Shown here: piece by piece, positions 1 through 18,830 of the stretch
How positions within the stretch are numbered: position 1 is the first letter of the stretch
Layout: the number at the start of each line of letters is the position of its first letter
Source: a virus
DNA length: 20,424 nt
Virus genome (UHGV): UHGV-0172319
Strand: one strand, 5' to 3'
Program-made: the position numbers and the translations under genes
Notes under the pieces: model-generated
What the model was told of the DNA's origin: nothing
Seen by the model: only the letters and a program-made list of their open reading frames with translations
Databases searched by the model: none

Positions 1-296
1 GGTTCTGTCAGCGGCACCTTGATATTTCGTTCTACCCAGGCCAACGCTTTATCGCGTTCGATGGCGTTTACCTGGTCACATTTCGCCTGCGTCAACTTCA
101 TGCCCTTCACTACTGGCTTACCATCGACCATCGTGGCGCCACGGCAAATGGTCCAGATTCCACCGCCATCCCGGTACGCTGTCAGGCTGTTTCCCTCTTT
201 CTCATCGAGAAACTGGTCGAGAATCACCGACGCTGGCGCACCGGCAAGCACCAGTCCCAGAACGGCGGCGCTTAGTTTTGTTTTTGTCGAGGCCAT
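1..296 (-). CDS. Endolysin, phage lysozyme (T4-lysozyme-like muramidase) with N-terminal SAR-type hydrophobic segment; N-terminal part only, gene continues past window start
   Basis: Reverse-strand translation from ATG at 296-294: MASTKTKLSAAVLGLVLAGAPASVILDQFLDEKEGNSLTAYRDGGGIWTICRGAT... Shows the E-x8-D-x5-T catalytic triad spacing of true lysozymes and a Gly/Ala-rich weakly hydrophobic N-terminus. Start lies 1 nt after the holin stop. Not in the ORF track because no stop falls inside the window. Confidence 0.8.
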   Translation of the reverse strand, partial: MASTKTKLSAAVLGLVLAGAPASVILDQFLDEKEGNSLTAYRDGGGIWTICRGATMVDGKPVVKGMKLTQAKCDQVNAIERDKALAWVERNIKVPLTE

Positions 297-297
297 A

Positions 298-612
298 TTA
301 TTTCACTGCCTCACCTGAGATACGTTTCATTGCCTCTGTCACCACCTCAGCGGCAGCAGGGCGATCACGGTCAGGTTTAACAGCCACATCAGCGAGGTAT
401 TTAGCCAGAAGCTGAGTTCTTTTCTTTTCCTCATCAAGCCGCTCACGCTCTTCTTTTCGCTTCGCGTAGTAGGTCTTAATAGTGAAATAGGCCGAGATCA
501 GTGCGCCGAGAATAAAAACATAATCCTGCAAACTCAGAACGGAGAAGAAACCAAGCAGCCCTGACCACCAGTACGGCAAGTTATGTCCATCGGTTGGGTT
601 CATACGTTGCAT
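298..612 (-). CDS. Holin (two predicted TM segments, pinholin-like) with dual-start motif
   Basis: 104 aa; N-terminus MQRM (two in-frame Met separated by Gln-Arg, the classic antiholin/holin dual start); two hydrophobic stretches (LPYWWSGLLGFFSVLSL, YVFILGALISAYFTI) then a charged tail; sits immediately upstream of the endolysin. Confidence 0.7.
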   Translation of the reverse strand: MQRMNPTDGHNLPYWWSGLLGFFSVLSLQDYVFILGALISAYFTIKTYYAKRKEERERLDEEKKRTQLLAKYLADVAVKPDRDRPAAAEVVTEAMKRISGEAVK

Positions 613-746
613 TCCACACCTCCGCTATCGGGGTGCTGTGTGATTAAAATGAATCAGGCTTCCGGGCTCTTTTGTAAAAGTGAAAAAGAAGGTGATTCCC
701 GGAGCCTGAAGATGATGATCACCACAGCGGTATGACGTGATGATCG

Positions 747-1799
747 TTATGTCTTATTCAGTTCGCGGATTTCTTCCACAGTCTGAATAAACCTTTCTGT
801 TTCCAGCTCAACACCGATTGCCCGTCGCCCCAGCGTCATAGCCGCTTTAATGGTTGAACCGGATCCCATGAAGAAATCAGCCACAACATCACCCGGCCTG
901 CTGCTGGCGTTGATGATCTGCTGCAACATGTCTGCTGGCTTTTCGCATGGGTGTTTGCCGGGATAGAACTGAACCGGCTTATGCGTCCAGACATCGGTGA
1001 AAGGAACAGAGACTGAAACAGAAAAGAATCGCCGGAGAGACTTATACTCTTCCAGCAATTCTGAATACTTTCGGTTCAACGAATGCCACGTGGCCACCAG
1101 CTGGTGGTGTGGTGTGTCGAGCTCATTGTTTCGATGCTTATCGAATGCAACCCTGGTGAACAATTCCTGCAGTTTCTGGTAATCCGCTTCGCCTGGCAGT
1201 TGCCATTGGGATGCACCGAACCAGTGGGACACCATGTTCTTTTTCCCGGTCGCATCGGCGATCTGCTTAGAGGAAACCCCCAGCGATTCACGCGCGTCAC
1301 GGAAGTATGAAATTAGAGGCGTCAGCACATGCTGTTTGAGCTCGTTACTTTTCTCCGCGTATCCATCACTCTTGGGCTTATATGGGCCCTGGTAATGTTC
1401 AGCGAAAAGAATGCGCTCAGTCGCAGGGAAATATGACCGCAGGCTTTCTTTGTTGCAGCCATTCCAGCGACCGGAAGGTTTTGCCCAGATGATGTGATTA
1501 AGGACACTGAACCGCTCCCGCATTATGATTTCAATATCAGACGCAAGGCGATGCCCGCAGAACAGGTAAAGGCTACCGGCGGGTTTCAGAACGCGCCAGA
1601 ACTCAGCCAGGTATCCATCAAGCCAGCGTAAAAAATCCTCGTCCCCTTTCCACTGGTTGTCCCATCCTTCAGGTTTCACCCTGAAGTAAGGTGGATCCGT
1701 AACGATAAGGTCAATGGAGTTATCAGGGAGAGAAGCGATGTAATGCAGGGAGTCAGCGTTGATTAACTCAACACTGTTTATTTTTACAGTATTTTCCAT
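747..1799 (-). CDS. Orphan DNA methyltransferase (beta-class amino-MTase, N6-adenine or N4-cytosine)
   Basis: 350 aa; motif IV DPPY near the N-terminus (LIVTDPPY) and AdoMet motif I near the C-terminus (FFMGSGST). No adjacent restriction endonuclease ORF. Confidence 0.85.
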   Translation of the reverse strand: MENTVKINSVELINADSLHYIASLPDNSIDLIVTDPPYFRVKPEGWDNQWKGDEDFLRWLDGYLAEFWRVLKPAGSLYLFCGHRLASDIEIIMRERFSVLNHIIWAKPSGRWNGCNKESLRSYFPATERILFAEHYQGPYKPKSDGYAEKSNELKQHVLTPLISYFRDARESLGVSSKQIADATGKKNMVSHWFGASQWQLPGEADYQKLQELFTRVAFDKHRNNELDTPHHQLVATWHSLNRKYSELLEEYKSLRRFFSVSVSVPFTDVWTHKPVQFYPGKHPCEKPADMLQQIINASSRPGDVVADFFMGSGSTIKAAMTLGRRAIGVELETERFIQTVEEIRELNKT

Positions 1800-2194
1800 A
1801 GATCAGTAAGCGTAACTCTGGTAGGCTCACTATGCTTTTGCGCTAAAGCAGTGGGCCCTGGTTAGCTTGTGACCTGAAAGCATGAGCTGATGGCTGGCCG
1901 GGTGCTACAACACCCACCAGCCGCCCATCTTCACAAAAAGAAAGCCCCGCTTAAACGAGGCATCAAAATCGTTTTAAGTCCGTGGCGTAGAAACCACTCT
2001 TAACACAGTAATACATAAAATGCGGACCGCGTGAGGAAAACAATGGTTTTTTTTAATCCATTGAGTAAAATCAATGCCACTTTGCACACATGTTATCCAC
2101 ACAGTGTGCTTGCAAATTCTCATTTATTTTTTTGAATTTTGTAAATGCTCTAATTTATGGGCTTTTTTTACCGATAGCATCTAAACACTTGTGT

Positions 2195-2218
2195 GGTAAG
2201 TTCTGAATGAACGTTACC
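2195..2218. promoter_or_regulatory. Imperfect inverted repeat (GGTAAGTTC / GAACGTTACC) 35-60 bp upstream of the protease start; candidate operator or 5'-UTR hairpin
   Basis: Read directly from sequence; arms share the GGTAA/TTACC core with the cI operator half-site; lies in a strongly AT-rich divergent promoter region (about 1960-2250). Confidence 0.35.
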
Positions 2219-2253
2219 CCTTGGTTTAAAACTCTTAACATAAGGACATCCGA

Positions 2254-3249
2254 ATGTTTGAGCAGCGGAAAGCTTTGTATGCGCAACTGGAACAAGCACG
2301 CAGTTCAAAAGTATTATGCTATGTAACTGGTGACAGACCAAACCAAGAAGCTCAAATCAGCGCTGATGTATTTGATCTTTTCGTTAACCATTTAGATGTG
2401 ATCGGTGACGTTCAAAAAATTAGTCTTGTGCTCTATACGCGAGGCGGCGACACTTTGACTGCATGGAGCCTTGTAAACCTGCTTCGTCAGTTTTGTAAAG
2501 AACTCGAAATCATAATCCCATCCAAATGTCATAGCTCTGGGACGATCATGTGTCTTGGCGCTAACAATTTGGTTATGACAAAGCAGGCAACCTTAGGTCC
2601 AATCGATCCGAGTGTGAATACACCACTCAACCCTTCGGCCATTATCAATGGGCAGCAACTTCAACTTCCAGTCAGTGTTGAAGAAATCAATGGTTATCTT
2701 GAAGTAGTTAAGCATGATTTGAGTATCAAGGATGATGCCTCACTTGCGCAGATCCTCCTTGCATTAAGTGAAAAGGTTCACCCACTAGTGCTTGGTAAAG
2801 TCTATCGAGCTAAATCGCAGATTCAAATGCTCGCAAGAAAACTACTTTCTCACCAACTCACTGATAGTGAAAGCATTGAGAAAATTGTAAGTTTCCTTTG
2901 TAGTGATTCTGGTAGCCATGACTACACTATAAACAGGATTGAGGCAGTAAACGATTTAGGTCTTACTGTGGAAAAACCAGATGAGCAACTTTACGGCCTG
3001 ATCAAAGAAATTTATGAAGATTTCAAAACTGAGATGCATCTGGGTGAACCTTTTGACCCAAATGCTATCTTAGGAACAGTTAACCAAGCATCGTATGTAT
3101 CTGTTAGAAGCATTTTAGAGGCTCCAGATACATTTTCATATCAATTCCGCACTGAGGGCATGTTACAGCGTTTGCAAACTCCAGGTGTCCCAAGTCAGTT
3201 CGGAATAAATCATAACCTTATCTCAGAAGGATGGGCTCAACATGGATAA
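2254..3249 (+). CDS. SDH-family / ClpP-crotonase-fold serine protease-like protein (moron gene)
   Basis: 331 aa; N-terminal half has the ClpP/SppA-like pattern (LYTRGGDTLTAWSLVNLL..PSKCHSSGTIMCLGANNLVM..LGPIDP); good RBS (AAGGA, 8 nt spacing); clearly lower GC than flanking phage genes; opposite strand to the late operon. Confidence 0.65.
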   Translation: MFEQRKALYAQLEQARSSKVLCYVTGDRPNQEAQISADVFDLFVNHLDVIGDVQKISLVLYTRGGDTLTAWSLVNLLRQFCKELEIIIPSKCHSSGTIMCLGANNLVMTKQATLGPIDPSVNTPLNPSAIINGQQLQLPVSVEEINGYLEVVKHDLSIKDDASLAQILLALSEKVHPLVLGKVYRAKSQIQMLARKLLSHQLTDSESIEKIVSFLCSDSGSHDYTINRIEAVNDLGLTVEKPDEQLYGLIKEIYEDFKTEMHLGEPFDPNAILGTVNQASYVSVRSILEAPDTFSYQFRTEGMLQRLQTPGVPSQFGINHNLISEGWAQHG

Positions 3250-3424
3250 CAAATCATCTACAGGAAACTTTGTCGTCTATACGAATAGGCATACAAATAC
3301 AGCAGCGCCTAAGACAGCAAGCACCCCATCTACTGCTCAAAAAGTTAGTAATAATGGTGTGAATGGCTACAGTAACTTTTTAAGTTGCACAACAGGTTCG
3401 GCCATAAAAAACAGTTTCTAAAAG

Positions 3425-3455
3425 CAACGGCTCATAATGAGCCGTTGTTGTTTCT
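3425..3455. terminator. Bidirectional rho-independent terminator between convergent protease gene and Q
   Basis: Perfect palindrome CAACGGCTCAT..ATGAGCCGTTG (3425-3447) followed by TTGTTTCT on + strand and preceded by an A-tract (T-tract on - strand). Confidence 0.55.
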
Positions 3456-3834
3456 ACTCACATTCTAAACGTATTTCGAGCATGCTAAGGCAACCATCGA
3501 TAAATCCCTCTGCCATCTGGATCTCGATGCGTATCAATTTTTCATCCTTCTTGCGCATTCTCGCTATCTTACGCTTAGAAATGCCATACAAATAATGCGC
3601 TACCAGTAGTGAATGCTCATAAGGCTTTCGCTTCTGAAGTCGGGCTAAGCAACCTTCTATAATAAGGGCATCATCATCGGTGCATGAAAGACGAGTTTTG
3701 CTTGTCTGAGGAAGAATCCCTTTAAAGCCAGCCGCAATAGGTGAGTAATCGACTCCTGAACTATCACTCGCTGCCCAACCACCCCAGCGCTCTAATACCA
3801 TCTGAATATCCCGCATGTAATCTCCACTGTTCAT
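3454..3834 (-). CDS. Late-gene antiterminator Q (QuuD / phage-82-type Q family)
   Basis: Core sequence MRDIQMVLERWGGWAA...IAAGFKG...LVAHYLYG...IQMAEGFIDGCLSMLEIRLE matches the lambdoid Q/QuuD family. Start at 3834 overlaps the upstream stop (ATGA); alternative start at 3816 gives MRDIQ. The longer track ORF to 3954 would overlap the upstream gene and is unlikely. Confidence 0.75.
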   Translation of the reverse strand: MNSGDYMRDIQMVLERWGGWAASDSSGVDYSPIAAGFKGILPQTSKTRLSCTDDDALIIEGCLARLQKRKPYEHSLLVAHYLYGISKRKIARMRKKDEKLIRIEIQMAEGFIDGCLSMLEIRLECE

Positions 3835-4820
3835 GCAAGCACGCCAATAGCAAGCGCGCGATCGATAAAACGAAATATCAACTCCAGCTGCGAGCCGTAT
3901 TTCTCTTCGAATACCACGGTATCCGCATGTAACTCGTCGTGATGCTTTCTGCACAAAGGCAACACCCAGAGGTCATGCGCTTTTGTCCCCATGCCGCCCT
4001 GACCGTGACCTATCAGGTGGTGCGGATCATCAGCCTGCTTACCACAGCAGGCGCACGGCTGGGCCTTCACCCATCGCGTGTATTTCTCATTTTCCCAGCG
4101 TCGGCGCTTCGGGCGTAGCATGAAGCTTTCCGGCGATTCCGGATCAATCCTGAGTGTCAGTACCTTTTTCGCCTTCTCCTGCACAATGCTGGTGGCCGGT
4201 AACGAGGGCACAATATCGCTTTCTCGCATGATGGATTTCGGCTCTTCATCCGGTAGTCGCAGCGCTTTATGTGCAACGCTTTCCGGTATCACGTCACCCA
4301 GATCATTTCTGACCATCCACCAGCACAACTCCGGGAGAGTCAGAACATGCGACTCAGAGAAACCTAAATCTGTTCGAATGACTGACAAAATCCAGGATAC
4401 CAGGTTTTTGCTGGCTATACCTGCAAGCTGTTCCGTGTATTGACCAGCGAGAGTGTGATCGCAGTGCCAGCACAGCCGGATGCTACCAGGCTGATGGTGC
4501 ATTATCGTGAAATTCTTGTCGTGCCATGTTGAATGGGGCCACTGGCATTCGAACTTTTTGTTTAACCAGCCATCAAGCGAAGACAATCCACCAGCGCGCT
4601 GAATAACGCGCTGATTTTCAAATATTCCACTCATTACCGGATCGTCTGCCAGTGGTTGAACCGCTGCCGGCACATGACCAGTATTGTAAGAGGCCATGCT
4701 TTCCGGTTCTGGCTCAAGTAAGACCCGACCGCGCATGAATAGCGGCATCAGTTCAGCACCGGGACGGAAAAGCACAACCCCCATTCGGTGGGCTATTTCA
4801 GGAGTTAACAACGCTCTCAC
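3831..4820 (-). CDS. DUF968-family protein (YdfU-like nin-region protein) with C-terminal Cys/His-rich motif
   Basis: 329 aa; C-terminal CACCGKQADDPHHLIGHGQGGMGTKAHDLWVLPLCRKHHDELH is typical of prophage DUF968 proteins; conserved position upstream of Q. Confidence 0.7.
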   Translation of the reverse strand: MRALLTPEIAHRMGVVLFRPGAELMPLFMRGRVLLEPEPESMASYNTGHVPAAVQPLADDPVMSGIFENQRVIQRAGGLSSLDGWLNKKFECQWPHSTWHDKNFTIMHHQPGSIRLCWHCDHTLAGQYTEQLAGIASKNLVSWILSVIRTDLGFSESHVLTLPELCWWMVRNDLGDVIPESVAHKALRLPDEEPKSIMRESDIVPSLPATSIVQEKAKKVLTLRIDPESPESFMLRPKRRRWENEKYTRWVKAQPCACCGKQADDPHHLIGHGQGGMGTKAHDLWVLPLCRKHHDELHADTVVFEEKYGSQLELIFRFIDRALAIGVLA

Positions 4821-4827
4821 AGCAACC

Positions 4828-5739
4828 TCACCCGACCAGATCGATAAGCTTCATCATCTCAGCAAATTTTGACTCGAAGAAATGTGGCTGAGTCTCGCGC
4901 GGGTTTGCTGGACTGGTAATGTTTTTCCCAAACAGACAGCCTTTCGCAGTAAGCGACCAGAACTTTTTAACTCCATTGATACCTGAACGGCTCTGGCGCT
5001 GTTTCTGCTCAACAATCCCCTGCCGGGACATCATGTGATAGACCTGATTGGCAGTGATCCGGAGATTATTAGCCTTGAGGAGGGCGCTTAGTGATTGCGT
5101 AGGTCGACTAGACCCGTCCTGTGCGCCTGCTGGTGCATCAATTGCATAGTGCGGCATCAGGTCTGGCAGGCCAGCAACTTGCTGCAGTTTGTGGTACGCC
5201 CCAAGCTTTGATGAATTTGAGAGGTTCAGCATTTTGGCGGCTGATTCGAGCAGGATAATACCGGCCTGAATTTTATCTGAAGTTTGTGAATGCGAAGCCG
5301 CATTCTGAGCAGCATCGAACGTTCTGATGACCTTAAGGTTAAAGGATGGGCTAATCCACATTGCATAGGCGTAAACAAGCTCTTTGCAGACGTAGGTTCC
5401 TCCGTTACGCCCCTGAATTGTCATCACCGGAATACTACGGGAATTTCCCGTAGTTTCTTTTTCCAACAATTCCACCAACGCCTGGGTTTCTGGACGCCGC
5501 ATGAACTCATGGACTTCCATTGAACGAGCGGATCGCTTTTCGCCTGAAGCGTTAAGCGCTGCTTTTTGCAGATCGTTAAGACAGTAATTGGATTCAAAAT
5601 ATTGACGTACGGAAACGCCATCAATTACAAGTAACTGATTCATTGTTTTCTCCACTGTTTTAGTGCGAAGGGGACTGCACTCCCGTTTCGCTTGCACCGG
5701 ATAACCATACCCTGAATTACCCATGTTTTGCTCTAGCAA
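4828..5739 (-). CDS. KilA-N domain protein (Rha/antirepressor-like nin-region protein)
   Basis: KilA-N-like segment (...GRNGGTYVCKELVYAYAMWISPSFNLKVIRTF...). RBS GAGGA precedes ATG at 5739; alternative start at 5643 (GGAG RBS) gives 271 aa. Confidence 0.6.
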   Translation of the reverse strand: MLEQNMGNSGYGYPVQAKRECSPLRTKTVEKTMNQLLVIDGVSVRQYFESNYCLNDLQKAALNASGEKRSARSMEVHEFMRRPETQALVELLEKETTGNSRSIPVMTIQGRNGGTYVCKELVYAYAMWISPSFNLKVIRTFDAAQNAASHSQTSDKIQAGIILLESAAKMLNLSNSSKLGAYHKLQQVAGLPDLMPHYAIDAPAGAQDGSSRPTQSLSALLKANNLRITANQVYHMMSRQGIVEQKQRQSRSGINGVKKFWSLTAKGCLFGKNITSPANPRETQPHFFESKFAEMMKLIDLVG

Positions 5740-6119
5740 GATGATATTTTTTCCTCAAATTTCTTGATCGAGATCTCTACTCTTCCCCCTTTCACTACTG
5801 GCCCCCACTCCACCAGCATTCTTTTCACCTGGCTGTCGTCCTCCCAGATCCCCGCGTGGGTAAGAGCGTCGAACAGCGCTTTGTTGTAGTTATCCAGATC
5901 CCGGATCCGGTTGTCCGGTGGGAACAGGATTATTTCAACAGCCGCCGGTGACGATGACGGCTTCGGGAGCATGCGCAGTTGTTCAATGATTGCCGCACAT
6001 GCTGACGACTGGAACTGGCGACCTTTGGCACTTATCAGGTGACGTCCCGCCAGCGGCCCCTTATTCGGGGCGCGCCAGTACGTGTTCACACTCGGAGGAA
6101 ACGGCAGCACCAGTTTCAT
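5733..6119 (-). CDS. rusA: Holliday-junction resolvase RusA
   Basis: 128 aa; start region and core (PPSVNTYWR...RDLDNYNKALFDALTHAGIWEDDSQV...KGGRVEISI) align with E. coli RusA, including the catalytic Asp-rich segment. Confidence 0.85.
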   Translation of the reverse strand: MKLVLPFPPSVNTYWRAPNKGPLAGRHLISAKGRQFQSSACAAIIEQLRMLPKPSSSPAAVEIILFPPDNRIRDLDNYNKALFDALTHAGIWEDDSQVKRMLVEWGPVVKGGRVEISIKKFEEKISSC

Positions 6120-6439
6120 ACCGTGATCCCCTTGTTTTTGAGATAGGCGATTGCGCGGTCCTTCGCACCATCCTCACCATTCACAAGCGCATGCAGCAGG
6201 GAATCTGCATCAGCAACGTTCTCCAGATCGTTGATGGCTATTCCCCGCGAAACGCCACGCGTCAGGGTGATAGCCCCTTTCCTCTCCAGCGCGCGCAGAT
6301 GATCCGCAGCAGCATTTGGGGAGCTGCATCCCAGCAGCCCCGAAAGTTCTGTATTGGTTGGAGGATAGCCATGCTCGCGTTGAAAGCTGATCAAGGTCTC
6401 CAGTACATGCTGCTGGCGAGCCGTGAGAATTTCTTTCAC
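6116..6439 (-). CDS. LexA N-terminal DNA-binding-domain-like protein (winged HTH, no S24 peptidase domain)
   Basis: 107 aa; LTARQQHVLETL...PPTNTELSGLLGCSSPNAAADHLRALERKGAITLTRGVSRGI parallels the LexA DNA-binding domain; no Ser/Lys peptidase region follows. Confidence 0.6.
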   Translation of the reverse strand: MKEILTARQQHVLETLISFQREHGYPPTNTELSGLLGCSSPNAAADHLRALERKGAITLTRGVSRGIAINDLENVADADSLLHALVNGEDGAKDRAIAYLKNKGITV

Positions 6440-7314
6440 GCGCTTTCCTCCAGAATGTTGACCATCTGAGCAGAAGCAACGGCAATGATCTCGCTGGTGG
6501 GCATACGTTCAAGCCATAGCTGATTGATATTGTCTTTCAGCTTGTTCTGCTGTGACTCAGTCAGGGCGTCAACGCCATCCACCTGGTTAAACACCAGACC
6601 AACCTCGAGAGGCCAGATACGCGATTCGACTTCTGGTAATGTCAGCGGCGCAGGTGGCTGTACTGTTTCTGCCTGGCGGGTCTTACCAGCGGCAAATGTG
6701 ACCAGCGACATAAACGCCTTCCCTTTTTCCTCCAGATCGGTACGGCTGATGTAGCTGAAACGCTCGCCGCGCCATGACTTATCGAAGATTGCAATGGCGC
6801 CAGCAAAGAAAGCACCTGTGGGTTTCTGCTTATCGTCAGCAGGAACAAACCACACAGGGAGATCGAAACCAATGCGACCGCGAATAAACATGATGTGATC
6901 GGCATCTTCAGGCCACCATGTTTCACTTGTCGCCGCTTTAATGAGGAACACGTAACGCCCCCCCTTTTCACGCATCTCCATTGTGTGATCCATGATGTGG
7001 GTCATGCCGGTGATCGCCTGCTTCTCGTGGTACTGAGAGCGGCTATAGGGTGGATTACCGAATGCGGCCCCGCCGATTGATTCCAGCATTTCCGACCAAT
7101 CCTGCATCAACGCGTTATCTTCGGCGGTGTACCAGACCGGGCACTTCGCGTTATCGTCGTCAGCAAACAGATCCAGAACCAACGGCCCAAATATTGAGTT
7201 GATCCCCCAAAACAACAGATCCGGAGTACACCATTGATCACCAACCTCTTTCAGTTCATGGGCTGGTTTGCTTCGCAGTGAGGCCAGCGCCAGGCTGTAG
7301 GAACTAATATTCAT
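6436..7314 (-). CDS. Phage Dam-family N6-adenine DNA methyltransferase with C-terminal extension
   Basis: 292 aa; motif IV NPPY (AAFGNPPYS) in the N-terminal half; about 100 aa C-terminal extension of unknown function; 4-bp overlap with the upstream replication gene. Confidence 0.7.
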   Translation of the reverse strand: MNISSYSLALASLRSKPAHELKEVGDQWCTPDLLFWGINSIFGPLVLDLFADDDNAKCPVWYTAEDNALMQDWSEMLESIGGAAFGNPPYSRSQYHEKQAITGMTHIMDHTMEMREKGGRYVFLIKAATSETWWPEDADHIMFIRGRIGFDLPVWFVPADDKQKPTGAFFAGAIAIFDKSWRGERFSYISRTDLEEKGKAFMSLVTFAAGKTRQAETVQPPAPLTLPEVESRIWPLEVGLVFNQVDGVDALTESQQNKLKDNINQLWLERMPTSEIIAVASAQMVNILEESA

Positions 7315-8351
7315 GATGACACTCCTTTCCCTGCCTCAGTTGACCAGATGTTGTTCCACCCAAACTGCGCCAGACCGTGGTTATAGCCTTTTGCCTTCAG
7401 CCCATCACGATCAGCTTTTGCACGGACCAATACTTCAACTTCGCTTTTCGGCTCGTTATTAGCTTCAAGGTCATGGTATCGACGCCAGGCAAGATCACGC
7501 TCAGCGGTATCAACACCAGCGTCCTGGCTGTAGCCATTCAGTTGCGTGGCCTGTCTTTTTGTCTTATTCCAGTCTTCTCTGGCTGGTCGCCCACGGCTTT
7601 CCCAGCGCGTGGCACTCTGCAGATAGCCTTCGAACTTCTTCGGGCCGAACAGCGTTTCAGGGCGCATGTACTGGTACTGCTCATCGTTGCCGTGCCAGTG
7701 CTCGTGTTTCAGGTCGATAACCAGTTGCAGGTCAGCAACGCTGTAACCTTCACGCAGACGAGCACGAATGTTTTCCAGCGAGGTTTTTGATTTCTGAAAG
7801 CGGGAGCCGCTGACCTGGTTCAAATGGGTTAAAACAAGAATGGCGTTATCGGTGATCACAACTTCAGGGTCTGGTTGCGACGCAACCGGACAAGAAGGTT
7901 TTTTACCTGATGGATCAGTAGTTGAATTTACTGACGGATCCCCGCCAGATTCTGACGGGTGAAAACCGCAATTCTGACCGGATTTTGACGCATCAAATTT
8001 TGACGGGTCAGATTTTGATGCGTCAGATTTTGACGGGTCAGAATCTGACAGGTGAGCGAATGCAACTGTCTGGAGTTTTGCCACATTCAACTGATAAACA
8101 TTGGAGGCATTTCGGTTGCCCTGTCGCCGCGCTTTGCGTGACAACCAGCCATCGGCTTCAAGCTTCGCTATTGCCGTTCTGACAGTGCTGACGCCTGCGC
8201 CAAGCTGGCGCGCGATTGTTTCAATGGAAGGCCAGCAGACACCTTCGTCATTGCTGAAATCAGCCAGGCGCGCCATAATAGCCACGCTGGATAACTTCAT
8301 TCCTGACGCTGCACAGGCATCCCATACATAGCCTGTCAATTTAGTGCTCAT
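7311..8351 (-). CDS. Phage replication initiation protein (replisome organizer, O-like) with N-terminal HTH and internal repeat region
   Basis: 346 aa; N-terminal winged-HTH-like segment; central peptide repeats (SDSDPSKSDASKSDPSKFDASKS) encoded by DNA iterons; position after cro/cII matches lambda O / P22 gene 18. Confidence 0.7.
   Translation of the reverse strand: MSTKLTGYVWDACAASGMKLSSVAIMARLADFSNDEGVCWPSIETIARQLGAGVSTVRTAIAKLEADGWLSRKARRQGNRNASNVYQLNVAKLQTVAFAHLSDSDPSKSDASKSDPSKFDASKSGQNCGFHPSESGGDPSVNSTTDPSGKKPSCPVASQPDPEVVITDNAILVLTHLNQVSGSRFQKSKTSLENIRARLREGYSVADLQLVIDLKHEHWHGNDEQYQYMRPETLFGPKKFEGYLQSATRWESRGRPAREDWNKTKRQATQLNGYSQDAGVDTAERDLAWRRYHDLEANNEPKSEVEVLVRAKADRDGLKAKGYNHGLAQFGWNNIWSTEAGKGVSS
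7948..8051. repeat. Iteron array (about 7 tandem copies of a roughly 12-15 bp unit, consensus approx. TCAGATTTTGACGG); candidate replication origin inside the replication gene
   Basis: Direct tandem repeats read in sequence (tctgacggg / attctgaccg / gattttgacgc / aattttgacggg / tcagattttgatgc / gtcagattttgacggg / tcagaatctgacagg). Confidence 0.6.
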
Positions 8352-8694
8352 GCTTCAACCCTTTTAAACTTATCCCTGAACCGCTCAACAGGCTGCATGC
8401 AGTCATGTGGGTAACCTTTTCGCCTGAAAATAACTTGTCGCTTTTCGCGTTCATATCCGATGACGTGGACTTCAATTCCCCGGTGGTCTCTGTATTTGCG
8501 ATCAAGCTCTTCCACTCTTTCGGCCCCTTTTCATTCATGGCTGAAAATGCGCCTACCAAATTGTCCGCAGGCTGGTAGTTGTGGCTGCCATCGGCGCAAC
8601 GTACTCTTTCCACATAGCCGAACGGGACATTACGCCCCACCAGCGGCGGACAACGAAATTGCTTCGCGGGTCTGAATCGGTTTAAACTGTTCAT
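8341..8694 (-). CDS. Hypothetical protein between cII-like gene and replication gene
   Basis: 117-aa ORF with plausible RBS (GGAG, 9 nt spacing); no recognisable motif; overlaps the replication gene start by 11 nt. Confidence 0.4.
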   Translation of the reverse strand: MNSLNRFRPAKQFRCPPLVGRNVPFGYVERVRCADGSHNYQPADNLVGAFSAMNEKGPKEWKSLIANTETTGELKSTSSDMNAKSDKLFSGEKVTHMTACSLLSGSGISLKGLKHEH

Positions 8695-8755
8695 GCGTTA
8701 GTTTCTCCACTGAATACGACACGCCACGACGCCAGGAGCTGCACACTCGCTGGCG

Positions 8756-9220
8756 TCACTTCTTTTGACGACGACTGAATAACGCCACAATCGCGCGAAT
8801 TTCTTCTTCACGTGCAGCCAGATGACGTCGGTGATGTTCCTGAATCTCTTCGGCTTCATGTTTTTCAATCACCCCATCCTCAAGTGCTTTCTGGATAATT
8901 TGATCCACCTGCCCTCTTGCAGCTGCTGTACGCATTGCTCGACTGAACAAGTCAACACGGTCTAGATCTTCCAGGCTTGGCAAGTCCACCAGAAGTGCTC
9001 CGCGGCGCTTGGCAAAGTAGTCAGCAACAAATGACGTATTAGAAATGTCTTCCATCGCTTCCAGTTCAGTTACTTCAAAGAACCGGCATCCGTTTTTCTC
9101 GTACAGGTTGTTGTTGAACTGGGTTTCTGACATGCCTAACGCACCAGCCATAGCCTGACGGCCTCCGGGGTACGCCTTGCACATCGCTTTCACTACTTCT
9201 TTCAAGGTTTGCTCTACCAT
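8756..9220 (-). CDS. CII-like early regulatory protein (putative)
   Basis: 154 aa from ATG at 9220 with RBS AAGGA; located immediately downstream of cro as lambda cII / P22 c1 is. The longer ORF start at 9289 would overlap cro. Confidence 0.5.
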   Translation of the reverse strand: MVEQTLKEVVKAMCKAYPGGRQAMAGALGMSETQFNNNLYEKNGCRFFEVTELEAMEDISNTSFVADYFAKRRGALLVDLPSLEDLDRVDLFSRAMRTAAARGQVDQIIQKALEDGVIEKHEAEEIQEHHRRHLAAREEEIRAIVALFSRRQKK

Positions 9221-9245
9221 CTTGTTTTTCCTTTGGTAGTTACTT

Positions 9246-9443
9246 TTACGCTGCTGAATCTGTAGCCTTCTGGTAAAGAGCAGCGTCATATTTCAATTTG
9301 CCTTTTGTGATTCGTTCGATCACGAAGGCCTGTTTCTCTGGAATGACTTCACCCCACCTGCAAACTGCCGGGTGAGAAATACCGAGCGCATATGCGGTTT
9401 TGGATACACCGCCAAAATGCTCAAGAACTTCTGATTTACGCAT
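9246..9443 (-). CDS. cro: Cro-like repressor (P22 Cro family)
   Basis: 65 aa; VLEHFGGVSKTAYALGISHPAVCRWGEVIPEKQAF...KGKLKYD resembles P22 Cro (as recalled from memory, not searched); divergent from cI; RBS GGAGGG. Confidence 0.8.
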   Translation of the reverse strand: MRKSEVLEHFGGVSKTAYALGISHPAVCRWGEVIPEKQAFVIERITKGKLKYDAALYQKATDSAA

Positions 9444-9538
9444 GTTCCCTCCTAGTTAACCTACGCCCTAAAGGTAACAAAAGGTACATTAAATAGCAAA
9501 CAACAGTTACAGGAAAACAATGTAACATTCGTTACATG
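9444..9538. promoter_or_regulatory. OR-like immunity operator/promoter region between divergent cro and cI
   Basis: Contains operator copy GGTAACAAAAGGTACATT (9473-9490) and a related inverted element TGTAACATTCGTTACATG (9521-9538) overlapping the cI start; several GTAAC/GTTAC hexamers. Confidence 0.65.
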
Positions 9539-10198
9539 AAAACAGAGATGAAAGACCGAATCAGATCAAGGCGTGTACAGCTCGATATAACGCAGCAGAC
9601 CCTAGCTAAAAAGCTGGGGGTTAGCCGTGTATCTGTAACAAAATGGGAAAGCGGAACCACAAAACCAGATGGAGAGAACCTTCATCAGTTAGCGCTGGCT
9701 CTGCAAACCACCCCAGAATGGATTCTTTATGGTCAGGGCGATGATGAAAAAGTTGATGACACAAAATTAGTGCCATACTTAAAAACACCAACCGCCGTCC
9801 CAATTATTTCTGCTGTTCAGGCAGGCCTGTGGACTGATACCTATGCATGCTCAAGGCTGACTGATGTGATTTCCTGGACTCAAACAACTGCTAATGTTTC
9901 TGACGAAGTTTTTGGTCTTGTCGTTCGCGGCGAATCGATGACAAACCCACATGGACTCCCTTCAATACCTGAAGGCTCTATCGTAATCGTTGAACCACAC
10001 TATGGTCAGCTAGATGACCTTTATGGGAAGATCGTAGTTGCAGTTCTGGATGGCTCTGCTGAAGCTACGGTGAAAAAGTTAGTATGGGATAGCCCTTATG
10101 CCTATCTCATGCCACTAAATCCAGTGTTTAAACCCATTCAGATTGATGGAAATTGCAGAATCGTTGGAAAGGTTGTTCAGATTACGCAAAACCTATAG
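9536..10198 (+). CDS. cI: CI-type prophage repressor (N-terminal HTH plus C-terminal S24 LexA-like autopeptidase domain)
   Basis: 220 aa; HTH (LDITQQTLAKKLGVSRVSVTKWESG); C-terminal VVRGESM (Ser nucleophile) and TVKKL (Lys) as in lambda CI/LexA; divergent from cro. Confidence 0.9.
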   Translation: MKTEMKDRIRSRRVQLDITQQTLAKKLGVSRVSVTKWESGTTKPDGENLHQLALALQTTPEWILYGQGDDEKVDDTKLVPYLKTPTAVPIISAVQAGLWTDTYACSRLTDVISWTQTTANVSDEVFGLVVRGESMTNPHGLPSIPEGSIVIVEPHYGQLDDLYGKIVVAVLDGSAEATVKKLVWDSPYAYLMPLNPVFKPIQIDGNCRIVGKVVQITQNL

Positions 10199-10218
10199 TC
10201 CTCACCTCATCATGTAAT

Positions 10219-10245
10219 GCCAGCGAGATCGCTGGCTTTTTTTTT
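10219..10245 (+). terminator. Rho-independent terminator downstream of cI
   Basis: GCCAGCGA..TCGCTGGC stem followed by a run of nine T. Confidence 0.6.
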
Positions 10246-10249
10246 ACCC

Positions 10250-10310
10250 AAAAGGTAACAAAAAGTACATTACACACTTGACCATCATGGTAACTAAAGG
10301 TACATTCTTA
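10250..10310 (+). promoter_or_regulatory. OL-like operators with pL-like promoter (-35 TTGACC 10278-10283, -10 TACATT 10301-10306, 17-bp spacer)
   Basis: Two further copies of the 18-bp operator: GGTAACAAAAAGTACATT (10254-10271) and GGTAACTAAAGGTACATT (10289-10306); the latter overlaps the -10 element. Confidence 0.65.
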
Positions 10311-10583
10311 TTACACCGTAGGAACCATTGGTTACCACGGAAAGTTCCTTGTTCTGGCTGTTCACTTTCCCCTTGAGGGTGTCAGCCAGCCTTTTCAGGG
10401 CACAACATGCAAGCGCACTCCTTCACTTACCAGTTATGGGTGACAGGTGTGAAACGGCGGAGTGCGCTTGCAGTTGTGGTGAAGTGCAGCCCTCAGAGGT
10501 AACCAGAAGATAAGCATCTGGCGCCACAACCCAATCACGTAGCCAGCGTGGTACCAGGAAGTAAGAAAGCTGTGTGTAGTCTT

Positions 10584-14634: not shown

Positions 14635-15813
14635 ATGGCGGCAAGGCCAAGAAAAAAAGAATACCGACATCTGCCGGACTATCTGGTATTTGATAAAGAT
14701 CGAGGTGTTTATAAATTCACACTTATTACCGGGAAGAAGAAAAATATAGGTAAGGATCGGGCCATAGCAATAGCTATCGCTAGAGAGTACAACCTGAGAA
14801 TGAGACCTGAGCTTTCCCCGTCGGTTGATAATCTCATTAGAGAATCTGGTGGGGCTACTGGAGAAGCCAAACCATTTGCTGAACATGTGGATCACATAAT
14901 GGAACGTGCTATTGAGGACGAGCGCCCTTCTCAGAGCACCCTGGATGACTGGAATAATGACGCACTACGCGTAAAAGAGTTTTTCGTTAATGTTCCTGCC
15001 TGCGATATCGAGTTGGAGCATGTTAACGCATACATCAATCAATACCATGCCGGCGCGTCTGCGAACGTGCAAAACAGAAAAGTCAGCTTCCTTAAAAAGC
15101 TGTTTTCGTATGCGGTCGATGAATCCCTGATGCTCGATAATCCGGCAACCCGGAAGAAAATGCGCAGGACCGAAGAGAAGAAAAGACAACGCCTGTCTCT
15201 CGATCATTTCATGGCTATCCGGCGCGCTGCAGCACCATGGTTAAGAACGGCAATGGACCTGGCTCTACAGACGACACATGCGCGCCTCGAAGTATCGAGG
15301 ATCCGTTATTCAATTCGCGAACCCAAAAACGGTATATGTGGTTGTGTCTGGCTCGATCAGCCAGAGAACGGTATCTATGGAACACTATACATACACCGCC
15401 AAAAGGTACAGAAGAAGGAGGCGTCGCACGTTGCGATCCCCATAGGTGATGAGTTAAAACGCATCATTGATGATAGCCGGGATAATGTGGCCAGCCCGTA
15501 TGTTGTTCACCGGATCCCAGAACGGCAGGTAAAACGGAGTAAAGAGGTTTCGCATCCCACCCAGGTGGCCCCGGACTATTTAAGCCGCTCATTCTCTGCA
15601 GTACGCGACAAGCTCGGGTTATGCAATCACCTCGCTATGGATGAAAGACCTACCTTCCATGAAATACGCGCGTTGGCTGCTCACTTGTTTAATCAACAGG
15701 GTATCGATCCACAAGGACGAATGGCGCACAGTGATGCCAAGTCAACGAAGATTTATACCCAAAACCATATTGATTGGGTCGTTGTTCCTCATGGAGAAAT
15801 TTTAACGGCATAA
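14635..15813 (+). CDS. int: Tyrosine integrase (lambda Int family)
   Basis: 392 aa; C-terminal catalytic-region motifs (HEIRALAAHL; IYTQNH with putative Tyr nucleophile); N-terminal arm-binding-like domain; position after xis. Confidence 0.9.
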   Translation: MAARPRKKEYRHLPDYLVFDKDRGVYKFTLITGKKKNIGKDRAIAIAIAREYNLRMRPELSPSVDNLIRESGGATGEAKPFAEHVDHIMERAIEDERPSQSTLDDWNNDALRVKEFFVNVPACDIELEHVNAYINQYHAGASANVQNRKVSFLKKLFSYAVDESLMLDNPATRKKMRRTEEKKRQRLSLDHFMAIRRAAAPWLRTAMDLALQTTHARLEVSRIRYSIREPKNGICGCVWLDQPENGIYGTLYIHRQKVQKKEASHVAIPIGDELKRIIDDSRDNVASPYVVHRIPERQVKRSKEVSHPTQVAPDYLSRSFSAVRDKLGLCNHLAMDERPTFHEIRALAAHLFNQQGIDPQGRMAHSDAKSTKIYTQNHIDWVVVPHGEILTA

Positions 15814-16123: not shown

Positions 16124-16159
16124 CCCCTTGCATTGGTTGGCGCCAAGCAAGGGGTTTTT
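16124..16159. terminator. Bidirectional terminator between convergent int and ImmA-like gene
   Basis: CCCCTTGC..GCAAGGGG stem (16124-16154) followed by TTTTT; a second hairpin AAGGCACC..GGTGCCTT sits just after the int stop (15817-15837). Confidence 0.5.
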
Positions 16160-16679
16160 ACATTTTGTCTAACTGATAACGTGCGGCCACTAATGATACT
16201 CCGCATGCCTCAGCAACATTTTCAGCACCCATCCCTTTTAAAACATTGGCATGAATAGCTGGCACTAATAACTCACCACTAAAACATTTAGCTTGCCACT
16301 CACTACTCTCAAAAGGGCGGATTTTAACCCCTGGAGCAGAACGAGCAAAAGCTATGTTCCTGTGCATGAGAAGATGGCCCAACTCATGCGCGGCAGTCAT
16401 CCTGTCACGACCAACCCCATTCAAAGCACCTTCGTAGATGTCTTCGCGCAGAATTAATAAATGTTCCTGCGGGTACGTAAGTCCATGCGTCTCCCCCATT
16501 TCTTTCATCCCGCCGATGTGGAGTTCAAAATCAGGGATCAACTGAGGCAATGCGAACTCAATTACCTCCATAACAGGAAACTTCAGACCTGTAATACCGA
16601 AGGTGCTCCGCAGAGATCTGACGATCGAACGTATTGATTCACGATTCTGCGGGGGTACTCGATAATCTTGTCCGCTCAA
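16158..16679 (-). CDS. ImmA/IrrE-family zinc metallopeptidase (COG2856-like)
   Basis: 173 aa; HEXXH motif (AAHELGHLLMH); apparent TTG start preceded by a strong AGGAGG RBS; directly downstream of the XRE HTH gene. Confidence 0.8.
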   Translation of the reverse strand: MSGQDYRVPPQNRESIRSIVRSLRSTFGITGLKFPVMEVIEFALPQLIPDFELHIGGMKEMGETHGLTYPQEHLLILREDIYEGALNGVGRDRMTAAHELGHLLMHRNIAFARSAPGVKIRPFESSEWQAKCFSGELLVPAIHANVLKGMGAENVAEACGVSLVAARYQLDKM

Positions 16680-16687
16680 ACTGCCTC

Positions 16688-17047
16688 CTACTGCTGTTTT
16701 CGATTCAAAATCTGTCGTAAATTCCGGAAGTCTTCTTCGTTTAACTCATCAAAACTACGAGCGAACGCAATTGCGACTTCACGAGCGTGGTCGTTCTTAC
16801 CTGACAAGCTGATCTCTACTGATTGCTGAGAGTCACGAGCTGCACTGATAAGCTTTTCTTTTTGTTTTTCATCCGCATTAAGATAGCCAATGATGCTATC
16901 AAGCACGGGTTTAGTGACCGCCCTTTTACCAGTTTCGATTGCTGAAAGATAAGACGAGGTCATACCCATAGCCTCAGCCATGCTTTTAAGCGTAAGCCCC
17001 AGGTCTATGCGCATTTTTCTTACTGTCTTACCAAACGGCGTTAACAT
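16688..17047 (-). CDS. XRE-family helix-turn-helix transcriptional regulator
   Basis: HTH segment (LGLTLKSMAEAMGMTSSYLSAIETGKR); ATG at 17047 with GGAG RBS (the track ORF's TTG at 17080 is less likely); forms an operon with the ImmA-like gene. Confidence 0.8.
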   Translation of the reverse strand: MLTPFGKTVRKMRIDLGLTLKSMAEAMGMTSSYLSAIETGKRAVTKPVLDSIIGYLNADEKQKEKLISAARDSQQSVEISLSGKNDHAREVAIAFARSFDELNEEDFRNLRQILNRKQQ

Positions 17048-17121
17048 ATGTTGTATCTCCAGTGTGTCAAAGACCCCCAATACTCTCGGGTCTCATTTTA
17101 AGTTAACACGCTCCAGACATG

Positions 17122-17145: not shown

Positions 17146-17343
17146 GTTTTATCTGACTTAGTTAATGAGTTTTTCATGTTCTGTTGATAGAACCTTTAGC
17201 TGAGTGAAGATATATGGGGAAATATGGGATATAAGTCTTTGATGTACAACACACACATTTTGCGAAAAATGCACTGTTTGTTTATACATACGAATGGTTA
17301 GCAACAGCAGACATGGAGCGACTTGCAGAGCTTTCGAAGCGGT

Positions 17344-17391
17344 GTCATGGGGTGTCGGGGGTCGGAGGTTCAAATCCTCTCGTGCCGACCA
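17344..17391 (+). other. 3' fragment (about 48 nt: anticodon-loop region, T-arm, acceptor 3' strand, CCA) of a tRNA-Pro(GGG)-like gene, with no matching 5' half; candidate att core
   Basis: GTCATGGGGTGTCGGGGGTCGGAGGTTCAAATCCTCTCGTGCCGACCA has the T-loop GGTTCAAATCC and acceptor CGTGCCGACCA; matches enterobacterial proL as recalled from memory; no complementary CGGCACG acceptor 5' strand upstream. Confidence 0.6.
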
Positions 17392-17401
17392 AAATTCCCC
17401 A

Positions 17402-17433
17402 GAAAAACCAGCCTTTTACGGCTGGTTTTTTTA
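17402..17433 (+). terminator. Rho-independent terminator directly after the tRNA fragment
   Basis: CCAGCC..GGCTGG stem followed by TTTTTTT. Confidence 0.6.
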
Positions 17434-17523
17434 TTATTGCCGTCCACCGAAATGGAATTCGATTCGAGTTATGGACGGAAATAATGTTACACTTCCGGTT
17501 TTGCACAGCCGATCTTATTGCTT

Positions 17524-17886
17524 ATGTGGCATCACTTCATCAAGTACACCTCCGTAGGCGTGATCAACACATTGATTCACTGGATAGTTTTTGCTATCTG
17601 CATCTACGCCTTTCATACCCATCAGGCGCTGGCGAATTTCCTGGGCTTCAGTGTGGCGGTCAGTTTTTCTTTTTACGCCAACGCCCGGTTTACCTTTAAG
17701 CAATCGACCACAACGCGTCGCTATCTGCTGTATGTCGGCTTTATGGGCCTGCTCAGTATCCTGACGGGTTGGGGGGCCGAACAGTGCGGTTTCCCACCGC
17801 TGGTGACGCTGGTCGCGTTCTCCGCCATTAGTCTCATTTGTGGCTTTATTTATTCCAGATTCATTGTATTCAAGGACGCACGATGA
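17524..17886 (+). CDS. gtrA: GtrA, bactoprenol-linked glucose flippase (O-antigen glucosylation)
   Basis: 120 aa from ATG 17524; small polytopic membrane protein ([14 protein letters not shown]..., ...[18 protein letters not shown]) closely resembling P22/SfV GtrA as recalled. Confidence 0.85.
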
Positions 17887-18830
17887 AAATTTCACTGGTC
17901 GTTCCTGTCTTCAACGAAGAAGAAACCATTGGCCTCTTTTACAAGACGGTGCGTGAATACGACGCACTGAAAGAACATGATGTCGAAATTGTGTTCATCA
18001 ACGATGGTAGCACCGACGCAACGGAATCCATCATCAACGCCCTCGCCGTCGCCGACCCACTCGTTGTTCCGCTCTCGTTTACGCGAAATTTTGGTAAAGA
18101 ACCGGCGCTGCTCGCCGGGCTCGACAATGCCAGTGGCGATGCCGTCATTCCGATGGATGTCGATCTCCAGGATCCTGTCGAAGTCCTGCCGCACTTGATT
18201 CAAAAATGGCAGGATGGGGCGGACATCGTGCTGGCTAAGCGTTCCGATCGCTCCGTCGATAGCCGCCTGAAGCGAAAATCCGCCGAGTGGTTTTATAAGC
18301 TACACAATAAAATCAGCACGCCGCATATCGAAGAAAACGTCGGCGATTTTCGGCTGATGAGTCGTGAAGTGGTGGACAACATTAAACAAATGCCAGAACG
18401 AAATCTGTTCATGAAAGGGATTTTATCCTGGGTTGGCGGCAAAACTGACATCGTCCTCTACGCGCGCGCCACTCGCTGTGCCGGGAAAAGTAAATTCAAC
18501 GGCTGGAAACTGTGGAACCTTGCACTGGAAGGGATCACCTCTTTTTCTACCTTCCCTCTGCGTATCTGGACCTACATTGGTCTGGCGGTTGCCCTGCTTT
18601 CTTTCACCTACGGTGCAGGAATGGTGATAGATACGCTTCTGTGGGGAAATCCCGTGCGTGGCTATTCTTCCTTGATTGTGTCAATCCTGTTTCTGGGAGG
18701 CGTACAGCTTATTGGCATTGGCGTGCTGGGTGAGTATATCGGACGAATCTATGTCGAGACCAAGCAGCGGCCTCGATACATTCTGAAAAAACGTAAAACT
18801 GTGGACCACGATTCAGACAAGGATAACTGA
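17883..18830 (+). CDS. gtrB: GtrB, bactoprenol glucosyltransferase (GT2 family)
   Basis: 315 aa; [13 protein letters not shown]... with DxD-type region (PMDVDLQD); C-terminal TM helices; start overlaps gtrA stop (ATGA). Confidence 0.9.

Follow-up and report, generated by a model that had tools for sequence, protein, structure and literature searches.

What would a phage gain from a protein that reproduces the DNA-binding head of LexA and leaves out its S24 peptidase? This question is raised by a short gene at positions 6116-6439 (minus strand) of the virus genome UHGV-0172319, from which a stretch of 20,424 nt, hereafter the window, was analysed. LexA mediates effects of antibiotics and DNA damage on mutagenesis, persistence, the induction of Shiga-toxin (Stx) phages and the mobilisation of genetic elements, and a RecA-resistant look-alike of it is carried by prophages of around two in five sequenced E. 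coli, as well as of Citrobacter, Salmonella, Klebsiella and Atlantibacter. The answer that we favour, with a probability of roughly 0.4, is that the gene encodes a RecA-insensitive, probably dimeric protein that would bind CTGT-type palindromes and hold some of the LexA-controlled promoters closed while the phage grows.

In this proposal DNA would be bound through helix III and the wing (Ser40, Asn42, Ala43 and Ser64-Arg65-Gly66), whilst a C-terminal tail would pair two chains in place of the LexA C-domain so that the two heads could read a palindrome. The target would be a CTGT-type, SOS-box-like palindrome, helix III being mostly LexA-like. Expression of the protein from the early-rightward operon would follow the loss of the prophage repressor, which is also when host LexA is cleaved, and the promoters that the protein shuts could be those of host SOS genes, of LexA-controlled functions of rival prophages, or of the phage's own SOS-boxed late methyltransferase gene. 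A more far-reaching version, in which a RecA-proof SOS-box binder re-silences the SOS regulon together with the LexA-controlled antirepressors, toxins and defences of rivals, either after induction or during infection, seems to us possible and rather doubtful.

A LexA-type head without the peptidase domain

The gene, its signals, the parts of its product and the two flanking genes are as follows.

6116-6439, minus strand: gene of the LexA-head-only protein, 107 amino acids plus a TGA stop (open reading frame and domain match)
6446-6451, minus strand: Shine-Dalgarno sequence GGAGGA, read directly from the sequence, inside the 3' end of the Dam-like gene
6233-6430, minus strand: winged helix-turn-helix (HTH), residues 4-69 (Pfam, AlphaFold2 model and 3jso overlay)
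6281-6319, minus strand: recognition helix, residues 41-53, PNAAADHLRALER, aligned with LexA helix III
6134-6223, minus strand: two-helix hairpin, residues 73-86 and 92-102 (AlphaFold2 model and family alignment)
6436-7314, minus strand: Dam-like N6-adenine methyltransferase gene (PF05869, 2.6e-43)
5733-6119, minus strand: RusA Holliday-junction resolvase gene (PF05866, 3e-15)

The start codon is a GTG (6439-6437, minus strand) spaced 6 nt from the GGAGGA, and it overlaps the stop of the Dam-like gene by 4 nt (GTGA, 6436-6439), whilst the stop of the LexA-like gene overlaps the start of rusA by another 4 nt (ATGA, 6116-6119). The gene is real, and it is coupled translationally to the methyltransferase gene upstream and to rusA downstream. 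A preliminary description of this DNA, made from the sequence alone, had placed it in the nin region, with a Dam-like methyltransferase on one side and rusA on the other, and the domain matches of the two neighbours bear this out. A database match showed the 107-aa product to be identical to WP_044268878.1, a 'LexA family transcriptional regulator' of Citrobacter amalonaticus.

The head of the protein matched the Pfam domain LexA_DNA_bind (PF01726) with an E value of 1.8e-18, residues 4-66 lying on positions 3-65 of the 65-position profile, and a sequence search of the PDB returned E. coli LexA and its isolated DNA-binding domain (1lea, 3jso) as the nearest solved structures (E about 1e-13 to 1e-14). 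An AlphaFold2 model built with 32 family sequences as input (predicted local distance difference test, pLDDT, 86.9) has head helices at residues 7-23, 29-36 and 41-53 and strands at residues 57-59 and 67-69, which form a two-stranded wing, and this head overlays DNA-bound LexA (3jso_B) with a root-mean-square deviation of 0.7 Å over 68 residues at 47% identity. The resemblance to the LexA head is far above chance. Compared with the E. coli LexA head (1LEA; 3JSO with operator DNA; 47-48% identity), the protein has the same winged-HTH fold and shares the LTARQQ start, Ser39, Asn41, Ala42, His46, Leu47 (LexA numbering) and the Ser-Arg-Gly of the wing, whilst it differs in having Ala for Glu44, Asp for Glu45, Asn for Arg28 and a two-helix tail of its own.

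The second half of LexA is missing. A Pfam search of the 107-aa protein gave no match to Peptidase_S24 (PF00717), the chain ending at residue 107, and neither the Ser119/Lys156 dyad nor the C-terminal S24 peptidase/dimerisation domain of LexA was found in it. The NCBIfam lexA equivalog TIGR00498 was matched at 61.3 bits, below the family cut-off of 110.95, and the match covers only positions 3-87 of the 203 in the profile. In a MAFFT alignment Asn87-Gly88 of the window protein falls on Ala84-Gly85 of LexA, so that the scissile Ala-Gly bond is absent as well. Since the S24 domain is lacking and Asn-Gly replaces Ala84-Gly85, RecA-stimulated self-cleavage of the window protein is impossible, and the preliminary description was correct both in seeing a LexA winged HTH without the S24 peptidase here and in calling it non-cleavable. 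Unlike the autoregulated LexA, the protein is phage-encoded and belongs to an early lytic operon. PADLOC returned no meaningful defence-system match to the LexA-like protein.

An old and widespread phage family

The window protein is a member of a large, already annotated phage family (PHROG 362, to which SfV orf42 belongs), which the preliminary description had missed. The PHROG 362 profile ('transcriptional repressor') was matched with an E value of 3.1e-40, residues 5-106 lying on positions 4-105 of 106, tail included. The LexA-type domain assignment itself is already in databases, and the family is common in prophages. A tblastn search gave 61 phage records with an identity of about 49%, in nearly all of which the gene lies immediately upstream of rusA; the carriers include SfV (orf42), SfII, SfIV, cdtI, mEp460 and Stx2a and Stx2c phages. 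Of 5426 complete E. coli genomes, 2233 carry DNA of SfV orf42 (95-99% identity, one to four copies), and its homologues there are annotated as 'LexA family protein'. SfV orf42 and its relatives have the same head and helical tail (105-109 aa) and occupy the same slot between methyltransferase gene and rusA, again with stop/start overlaps, the E. coli/Shigella phage versions being about 49% identical to the window protein.

A large protein search extended the family to 105-109-aa versions from Citrobacter, Salmonella and Atlantibacter, to 135-aa versions from Enterobacter that are extended at the N-terminus, and to 157-158-aa versions from Klebsiella and Raoultella (P0060-P0099). These last have the same head, 54-56% identical to that of E. 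coli LexA, and a different C-terminal domain, modelled in the Klebsiella 157-aa variant as a beta-alpha-beta-alpha-beta unit of about 75 residues with conserved Cys residues; this domain had no Pfam match, and a fold search with the variant gave no PDB match beyond the LexA head.

Because the protein is short and the catalytic half is gone, it might be taken for a decaying, functionless remnant of a captured lexA. We find this scarcely credible: length (105-109 aa), tail and position are conserved in at least five genera at 49-96% identity with an undisrupted frame, the gene has a strong ribosome-binding site and is coupled at its start and its stop to the genes next to it, and the E. coli homologue recurs almost unchanged across the 2233 genomes. 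An identity of only about 47% to the E. coli LexA head points to an old, maintained lineage and not to a recent fragment, and the full-length family match together with the conservation of the tail across genera likewise indicates a gene that has been maintained. A truncated lexA or pseudogene was ruled out by the conservation of length, tail and position across genera.

If the protein does bind SOS boxes, prophages would constitute a widespread hidden layer of SOS control, since about 41% of complete E. coli genomes have a homologue, Stx2a and Stx2c phages being among the carriers, and mutagenesis, persistence, Stx-phage induction and mobilisation could be altered in lysogens. If it has a target of its own instead, a very common type of phage would have a regulator that has gone unrecognised.

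A conserved helical tail in place of the LexA C-domain

Beyond the head, some 35 residues are kept across genera with the pattern A..LL.AL..G...AR..AIA.L...G in the family alignment, the conserved residues of the window protein being L81, L85, A92, A96, I97, L100 and G104. The tail is predicted to be helical (pLDDT about 90), whereas the cleavage-site region of LexA is extended, and a PDB structure search yielded no counterpart of it. We infer that the tail replaces the LexA C-domain as dimerisation element; a conserved tail of about 40 residues, a point overlooked by the preliminary description, is probably what makes the protein work without that domain.

A useful comparison is the LexA 1-84 cleavage fragment, likewise a head without the C-domain, which reportedly retains some weak operator binding and is removed by ClpXP, completing SOS induction. 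That fragment exposes a ClpX signal at its end, which is absent from the phage protein, whilst the phage protein has the extra conserved helical module; it should be stable and, as a dimer, would bind much better.

The tail also bears on the heterodimer with host LexA that had been suggested for this protein. Poisoning of host LexA through mixed dimers with the window protein draws on homology of the N-terminal domain alone; LexA, however, dimerises through its C-terminal domain (PMC3091678), which the window protein is missing, and no part of the LexA dimer interface is similar to the tail. We therefore consider such mixed dimers highly improbable, and heterodimer formation with host LexA was rejected on account of the absent dimerisation domain.

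Another use of the tail would be to bind proteins, DNA binding being secondary: it could dock on an S24 peptidase (host LexA, the CI-like repressor encoded at 9536-10198, or UmuD) as an uncleavable pseudo-substrate, or it could bind RusA or the methyltransferase. In the MAFFT alignment the first tail helix indeed falls on the linker/cleavage-site region of LexA (SLLHALVNG against PLVGRVAAG), the position aligned with the scissile bond reads Ala-Gly in the Salmonella (LVAGEE) and SfV/E. coli (LLAGEE) variants, the TIGR00498 match extends to profile position 87, and the LexA-like gene is tightly coupled to its neighbours. The predicted helices of the tail do not match, however, the extended form of the LexA cleavage-site region, family members conserve neither residue of the Ala-Gly pair (VNG, VAG, LNG, IDD and TDE occur), and the most conserved residues are those that contact DNA, which argues for DNA binding as the selected function. 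A mainly protein-binding role thus appears improbable. As observations on the tail itself, it may derive from the start of the LexA C-domain, and for the Salmonella and SfV/E. coli variants cleavage in trans by an S24 peptidase is a possibility raised by their Ala-Gly.

The recognition helix and the SOS-box reading

LexA contacts DNA through Ser39, Asn41, Ala42, Glu44 and Glu45 of helix III (PMC3091678). The preliminary description had named the conservation of such residues as a check, and the outcome is divided: the window protein has Ser, Asn, Ala, Ala and Asp at these five positions (its Ser40, just ahead of the recognition helix, aligning with LexA Ser39), so that Ser39, Asn41 and Ala42 are kept, Glu45 is conservatively replaced by Asp, and Glu44 is lost to Ala. 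The family alignment shows little or no variation at LTxRQQ, Ser40, Asn42, His47-Leu48 and Ser64-Arg65-Gly66, the DNA-contact residues being the most conserved part of the proteins, and because conservation is strongest on the DNA-binding surface we take DNA binding to be the selected function. Helix III reads SPNAAADHL in the window protein versus SVNAAVEHL in SfV. Asp45 fits LexA-type recognition, since it is also carried by S24-bearing LexAs (P0100 and P0113) and by a LexA head of the Edwardsiella phage EPP-1 (see below). Judged from these residues, the idea that the window protein mimics LexA at SOS boxes is plausible.

Several results weigh against this reading. A census of helix-III residues in 124 sequences from the homologue hit list showed that the tail-bearing family has A, N, V or S at position 44, never Glu, and D, E, T or S at position 45, whereas the S24-bearing LexAs in the same census keep Glu44 and have Glu or Asp at position 45. 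That Glu44 is lost throughout the family and that positions 44/45 vary argues against a strict copy of LexA specificity. Host LexAs keep both positions, and a protein directed at the host SOS box, which does not vary, should have them fixed; because Glu44 is replaced in the whole family, the SOS-box-like target is the weakest step of the proposal. Dimerisation is itself inferred, and a search with the tail alone among 1.84 billion representatives lent it no support, giving three matches of which none was informative (one family fragment and two long proteins, the 533-aa one matching the query in six stretches). A full-text literature search found no experimental study of the enterobacterial PHROG 362/SfV orf42 family. 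The one characterised phage LexA-head-only protein that was found in the literature search, GIL01 gp6, which the preliminary description had missed, uses a site of its own and activates transcription. Lastly, phage Eeyore retains the SOS-like box of the late methyltransferase gene (see below) and lacks the LexA-like gene, which makes the box independent of the window protein.

The gp6 protein of the Bacillus phage GIL01 binds its own palindrome (GaCACA..TGTGaC, which is not the host LexA box) over the -35 element of the late promoter P3 and activates this promoter (Fornelos et al., 2018; PMC6182141). Like the window protein it is phage-encoded, is in essence a LexA DNA-binding domain lacking a cleavage domain and is made early; unlike the window protein it is 66 aa long, has no tail and comes from a tectivirus of a Gram-positive host. 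BLASTP of gp6 against the window protein gave no alignment at E <= 100, the relation being only via the LexA-domain fold, and since no pairwise similarity is detectable we regard the two as independent derivations and not as orthologues. It follows from gp6 that a borrowed LexA head need not keep either the target or the sign of regulation of LexA.

The same could hold for the window protein, which would then be a phage-specific transcription factor with its own operator, possibly an activator like gp6, the LexA head serving as a borrowed scaffold whose specificity has drifted via positions 44/45. In addition to the gp6 precedent, the pairs found at 44-45 in subfamilies (A-D, A-E, V-E, N-D and A-T) resemble diversifying specificity, the helix is strongly altered (SSSKAVLLHL) in the relative from Klebsiella phage ST846-OXA48phi9.1, and short LexA-head-only proteins (65-150 aa) are common in many other virus groups as well. 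Helix III for the most part, and the wing, are nevertheless still LexA-like, and simple searches, described below, gave no shared palindrome except origin iterons and no NTNT-N8-ANAN site except SOS boxes. On balance an operator private to the phage is a tentative alternative that we think somewhat less likely than the favoured reading.

Other mobile elements adjust the host SOS response through proteins such as GIL01 gp7, the plasmid protein PsiB and DinI, which act on the LexA or RecA proteins and not on DNA; these are possible functional analogues of the window protein without homology to it.

Search for target sites

The element in the window that most resembles a LexA target lies at the entry to the late genes.

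1773-1790, no strand assigned: ACTGTTTATTTTTACAGT, the only strong LexA-type operator in the window, over codons 4-9 of the late methyltransferase gene; candidate target
747-1799, minus strand: late N6_N4 methyltransferase gene (Pfam)
1961-1944, minus strand: terminator-like hairpin

No match of the ACTGTTTATTTTTACAGT type occurred in any of 100 dinucleotide-preserving shuffles of the window. Read on the coding strand the box is a near-consensus SOS box (taCTGTAAAAATAAACAGtg) just downstream of the hairpin, and SfV, Eeyore and a Klebsiella prophage (there as CTGT..CCAG) retain it though the encoded amino acids change. Because Eeyore keeps the box without the LexA-like gene, host LexA is the likelier binder, and the window protein could use it too. 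The leader of about 85 nt upstream of the late methyltransferase gene (1800-1885) is more conserved than the coding sequence, and the conservation of box and leader suggests that the entry to the late genes is controlled by LexA or holds an element acting as RNA or DNA. A tie between the box of the late methyltransferase gene and the LexA-like gene was also considered and is weakened by Eeyore, in which the former is present and the latter absent.

Operators for the window protein were sought as inverted repeats in positions 1-10500 of the window, as exact palindromes with 5-6-nt arms common to six phages, and by half-site scans, relaxed (CTNT/CNGT/NTGT-N8) or of the form NTNT-N8-ANAN over 11 loci. 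Six phages with the gene (including the window, SfV, Klebsiella and Atlantibacter) have no palindrome in common in their early-right regions besides the origin iterons, and the relaxed half-site and NTNT-N8-ANAN scans gave nothing beyond ordinary SOS boxes, these searches being simple ones that direct repeats, other spacings and subfamily-specific sites would escape. The lack of a phage-borne palindrome gives weak support to a target outside the phage (host SOS boxes) or to the SOS box itself.

A related arrangement was seen in the Edwardsiella phage EPP-1 (2733-3710), where an SOS box (aaCTGTATGTAAATCCAGta) stands 64 bp upstream of a two-gene unit that encodes a Rha-like regulator and then a 71-aa, tail-less LexA head keeping Glu44-Asp45. 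From its sequence this unit looks like a LexA-controlled antirepressor-type module with its own uncleavable LexA head.

Timing of expression and neighbouring genes

Pfam assignments identify the window as the early region of an SfV-like lambdoid phage, in which the order of genes is identical to that in SfV (dam, orf42, rusA, orf44, orf45, Q and the orf48 methyltransferase). The remaining genes, all assigned by Pfam, are listed here.

9536-10198, plus strand: CI-like repressor with S24 domain
8756-9289, minus strand: cII
8348-8515, minus strand: DUF4222 gene
7311-8351, minus strand: O-like replication gene with origin iterons
4828-5739, minus strand: KilA-N protein gene
3831-4820, minus strand: DUF968/HNH gene
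3454-3954, minus strand: Q
2254-3249, plus strand, opposite to its neighbours: ClpP-like SDH-type serine protease gene
14635-15813, plus strand: integrase gene
17313-20374, plus strand: gtrABC-like genes

Within the early-rightward operon the LexA-like gene is situated downstream of both cII and the replication gene, and a consensus scan found no sigma-70-like promoter before it. Given this position and the lack of a visible promoter of its own, the LexA-like protein should appear only after the CI-like repressor is gone. The preliminary description had the protein dampening both host SOS and prophage induction; since it would be produced only after loss of the repressor, it is doubtful that it could stop the induction of its own prophage. 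It could act whilst host LexA is depleted.

The gene directly upstream of the LexA-like gene encodes a DNA methyltransferase in most of the contexts examined, with exceptions, and the family of the enzyme differs: Dam (PF05869) in the window, SfV and mEp460, Dam plus a C5 enzyme (PF00145) in Klebsiella, and a D12-class enzyme (MethyltransfD12, PF02086) in Atlantibacter. Despite these changes of family, the order methyltransferase, LexA-like gene, rusA is retained in the window, SfV, mEp460, Klebsiella, Atlantibacter and E. coli. This order could represent a self-protection cassette against the SOS induction and the DNA breaks that foreign methylation causes, an idea that we hold to be improbable. 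In an unrelated podovirus (MW202482) a LexA-like open reading frame also adjoins an N6_N4 methyltransferase gene, and the two proteins, methyltransferase and LexA-like, may be linked in function.

Tandem inverted repeats of the GTCAGATTTTGAC type occupy positions 7986-8049, inside the O-like gene where the protein has SDPSK repeats; they are probably the phage origin, and the same arms occur in Atlantibacter prophages. Scans of the window against Rfam and for tRNA genes gave no matches. The ClpP-like protease gene lies between Q and the late methyltransferase gene, where lambdoid phages often carry morons.

At the other end of the window the integrase adjoins gtrA/gtrB/gtrC-like O-antigen modification genes (GT2 glycosyltransferase, DUF6056), as in the SfV record, and from this gene content the phage is likely to be serotype-converting. 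Between the integrase gene and the gtrA-like gene, an IrrE/M78-peptidase gene and an HTH-protein gene (16158-16679 and 16688-17080, both minus strand) gave PADLOC matches to CapP/CapH (1.3e-10 and 2.3e-10) and may form a second, LexA-independent switch of the DNA-damage type. The intergenic region ahead of the gtrA-like gene contains an SOS-like site (CTGTTTGTTTATACAT, 17274-17289) whose core has one mismatch.

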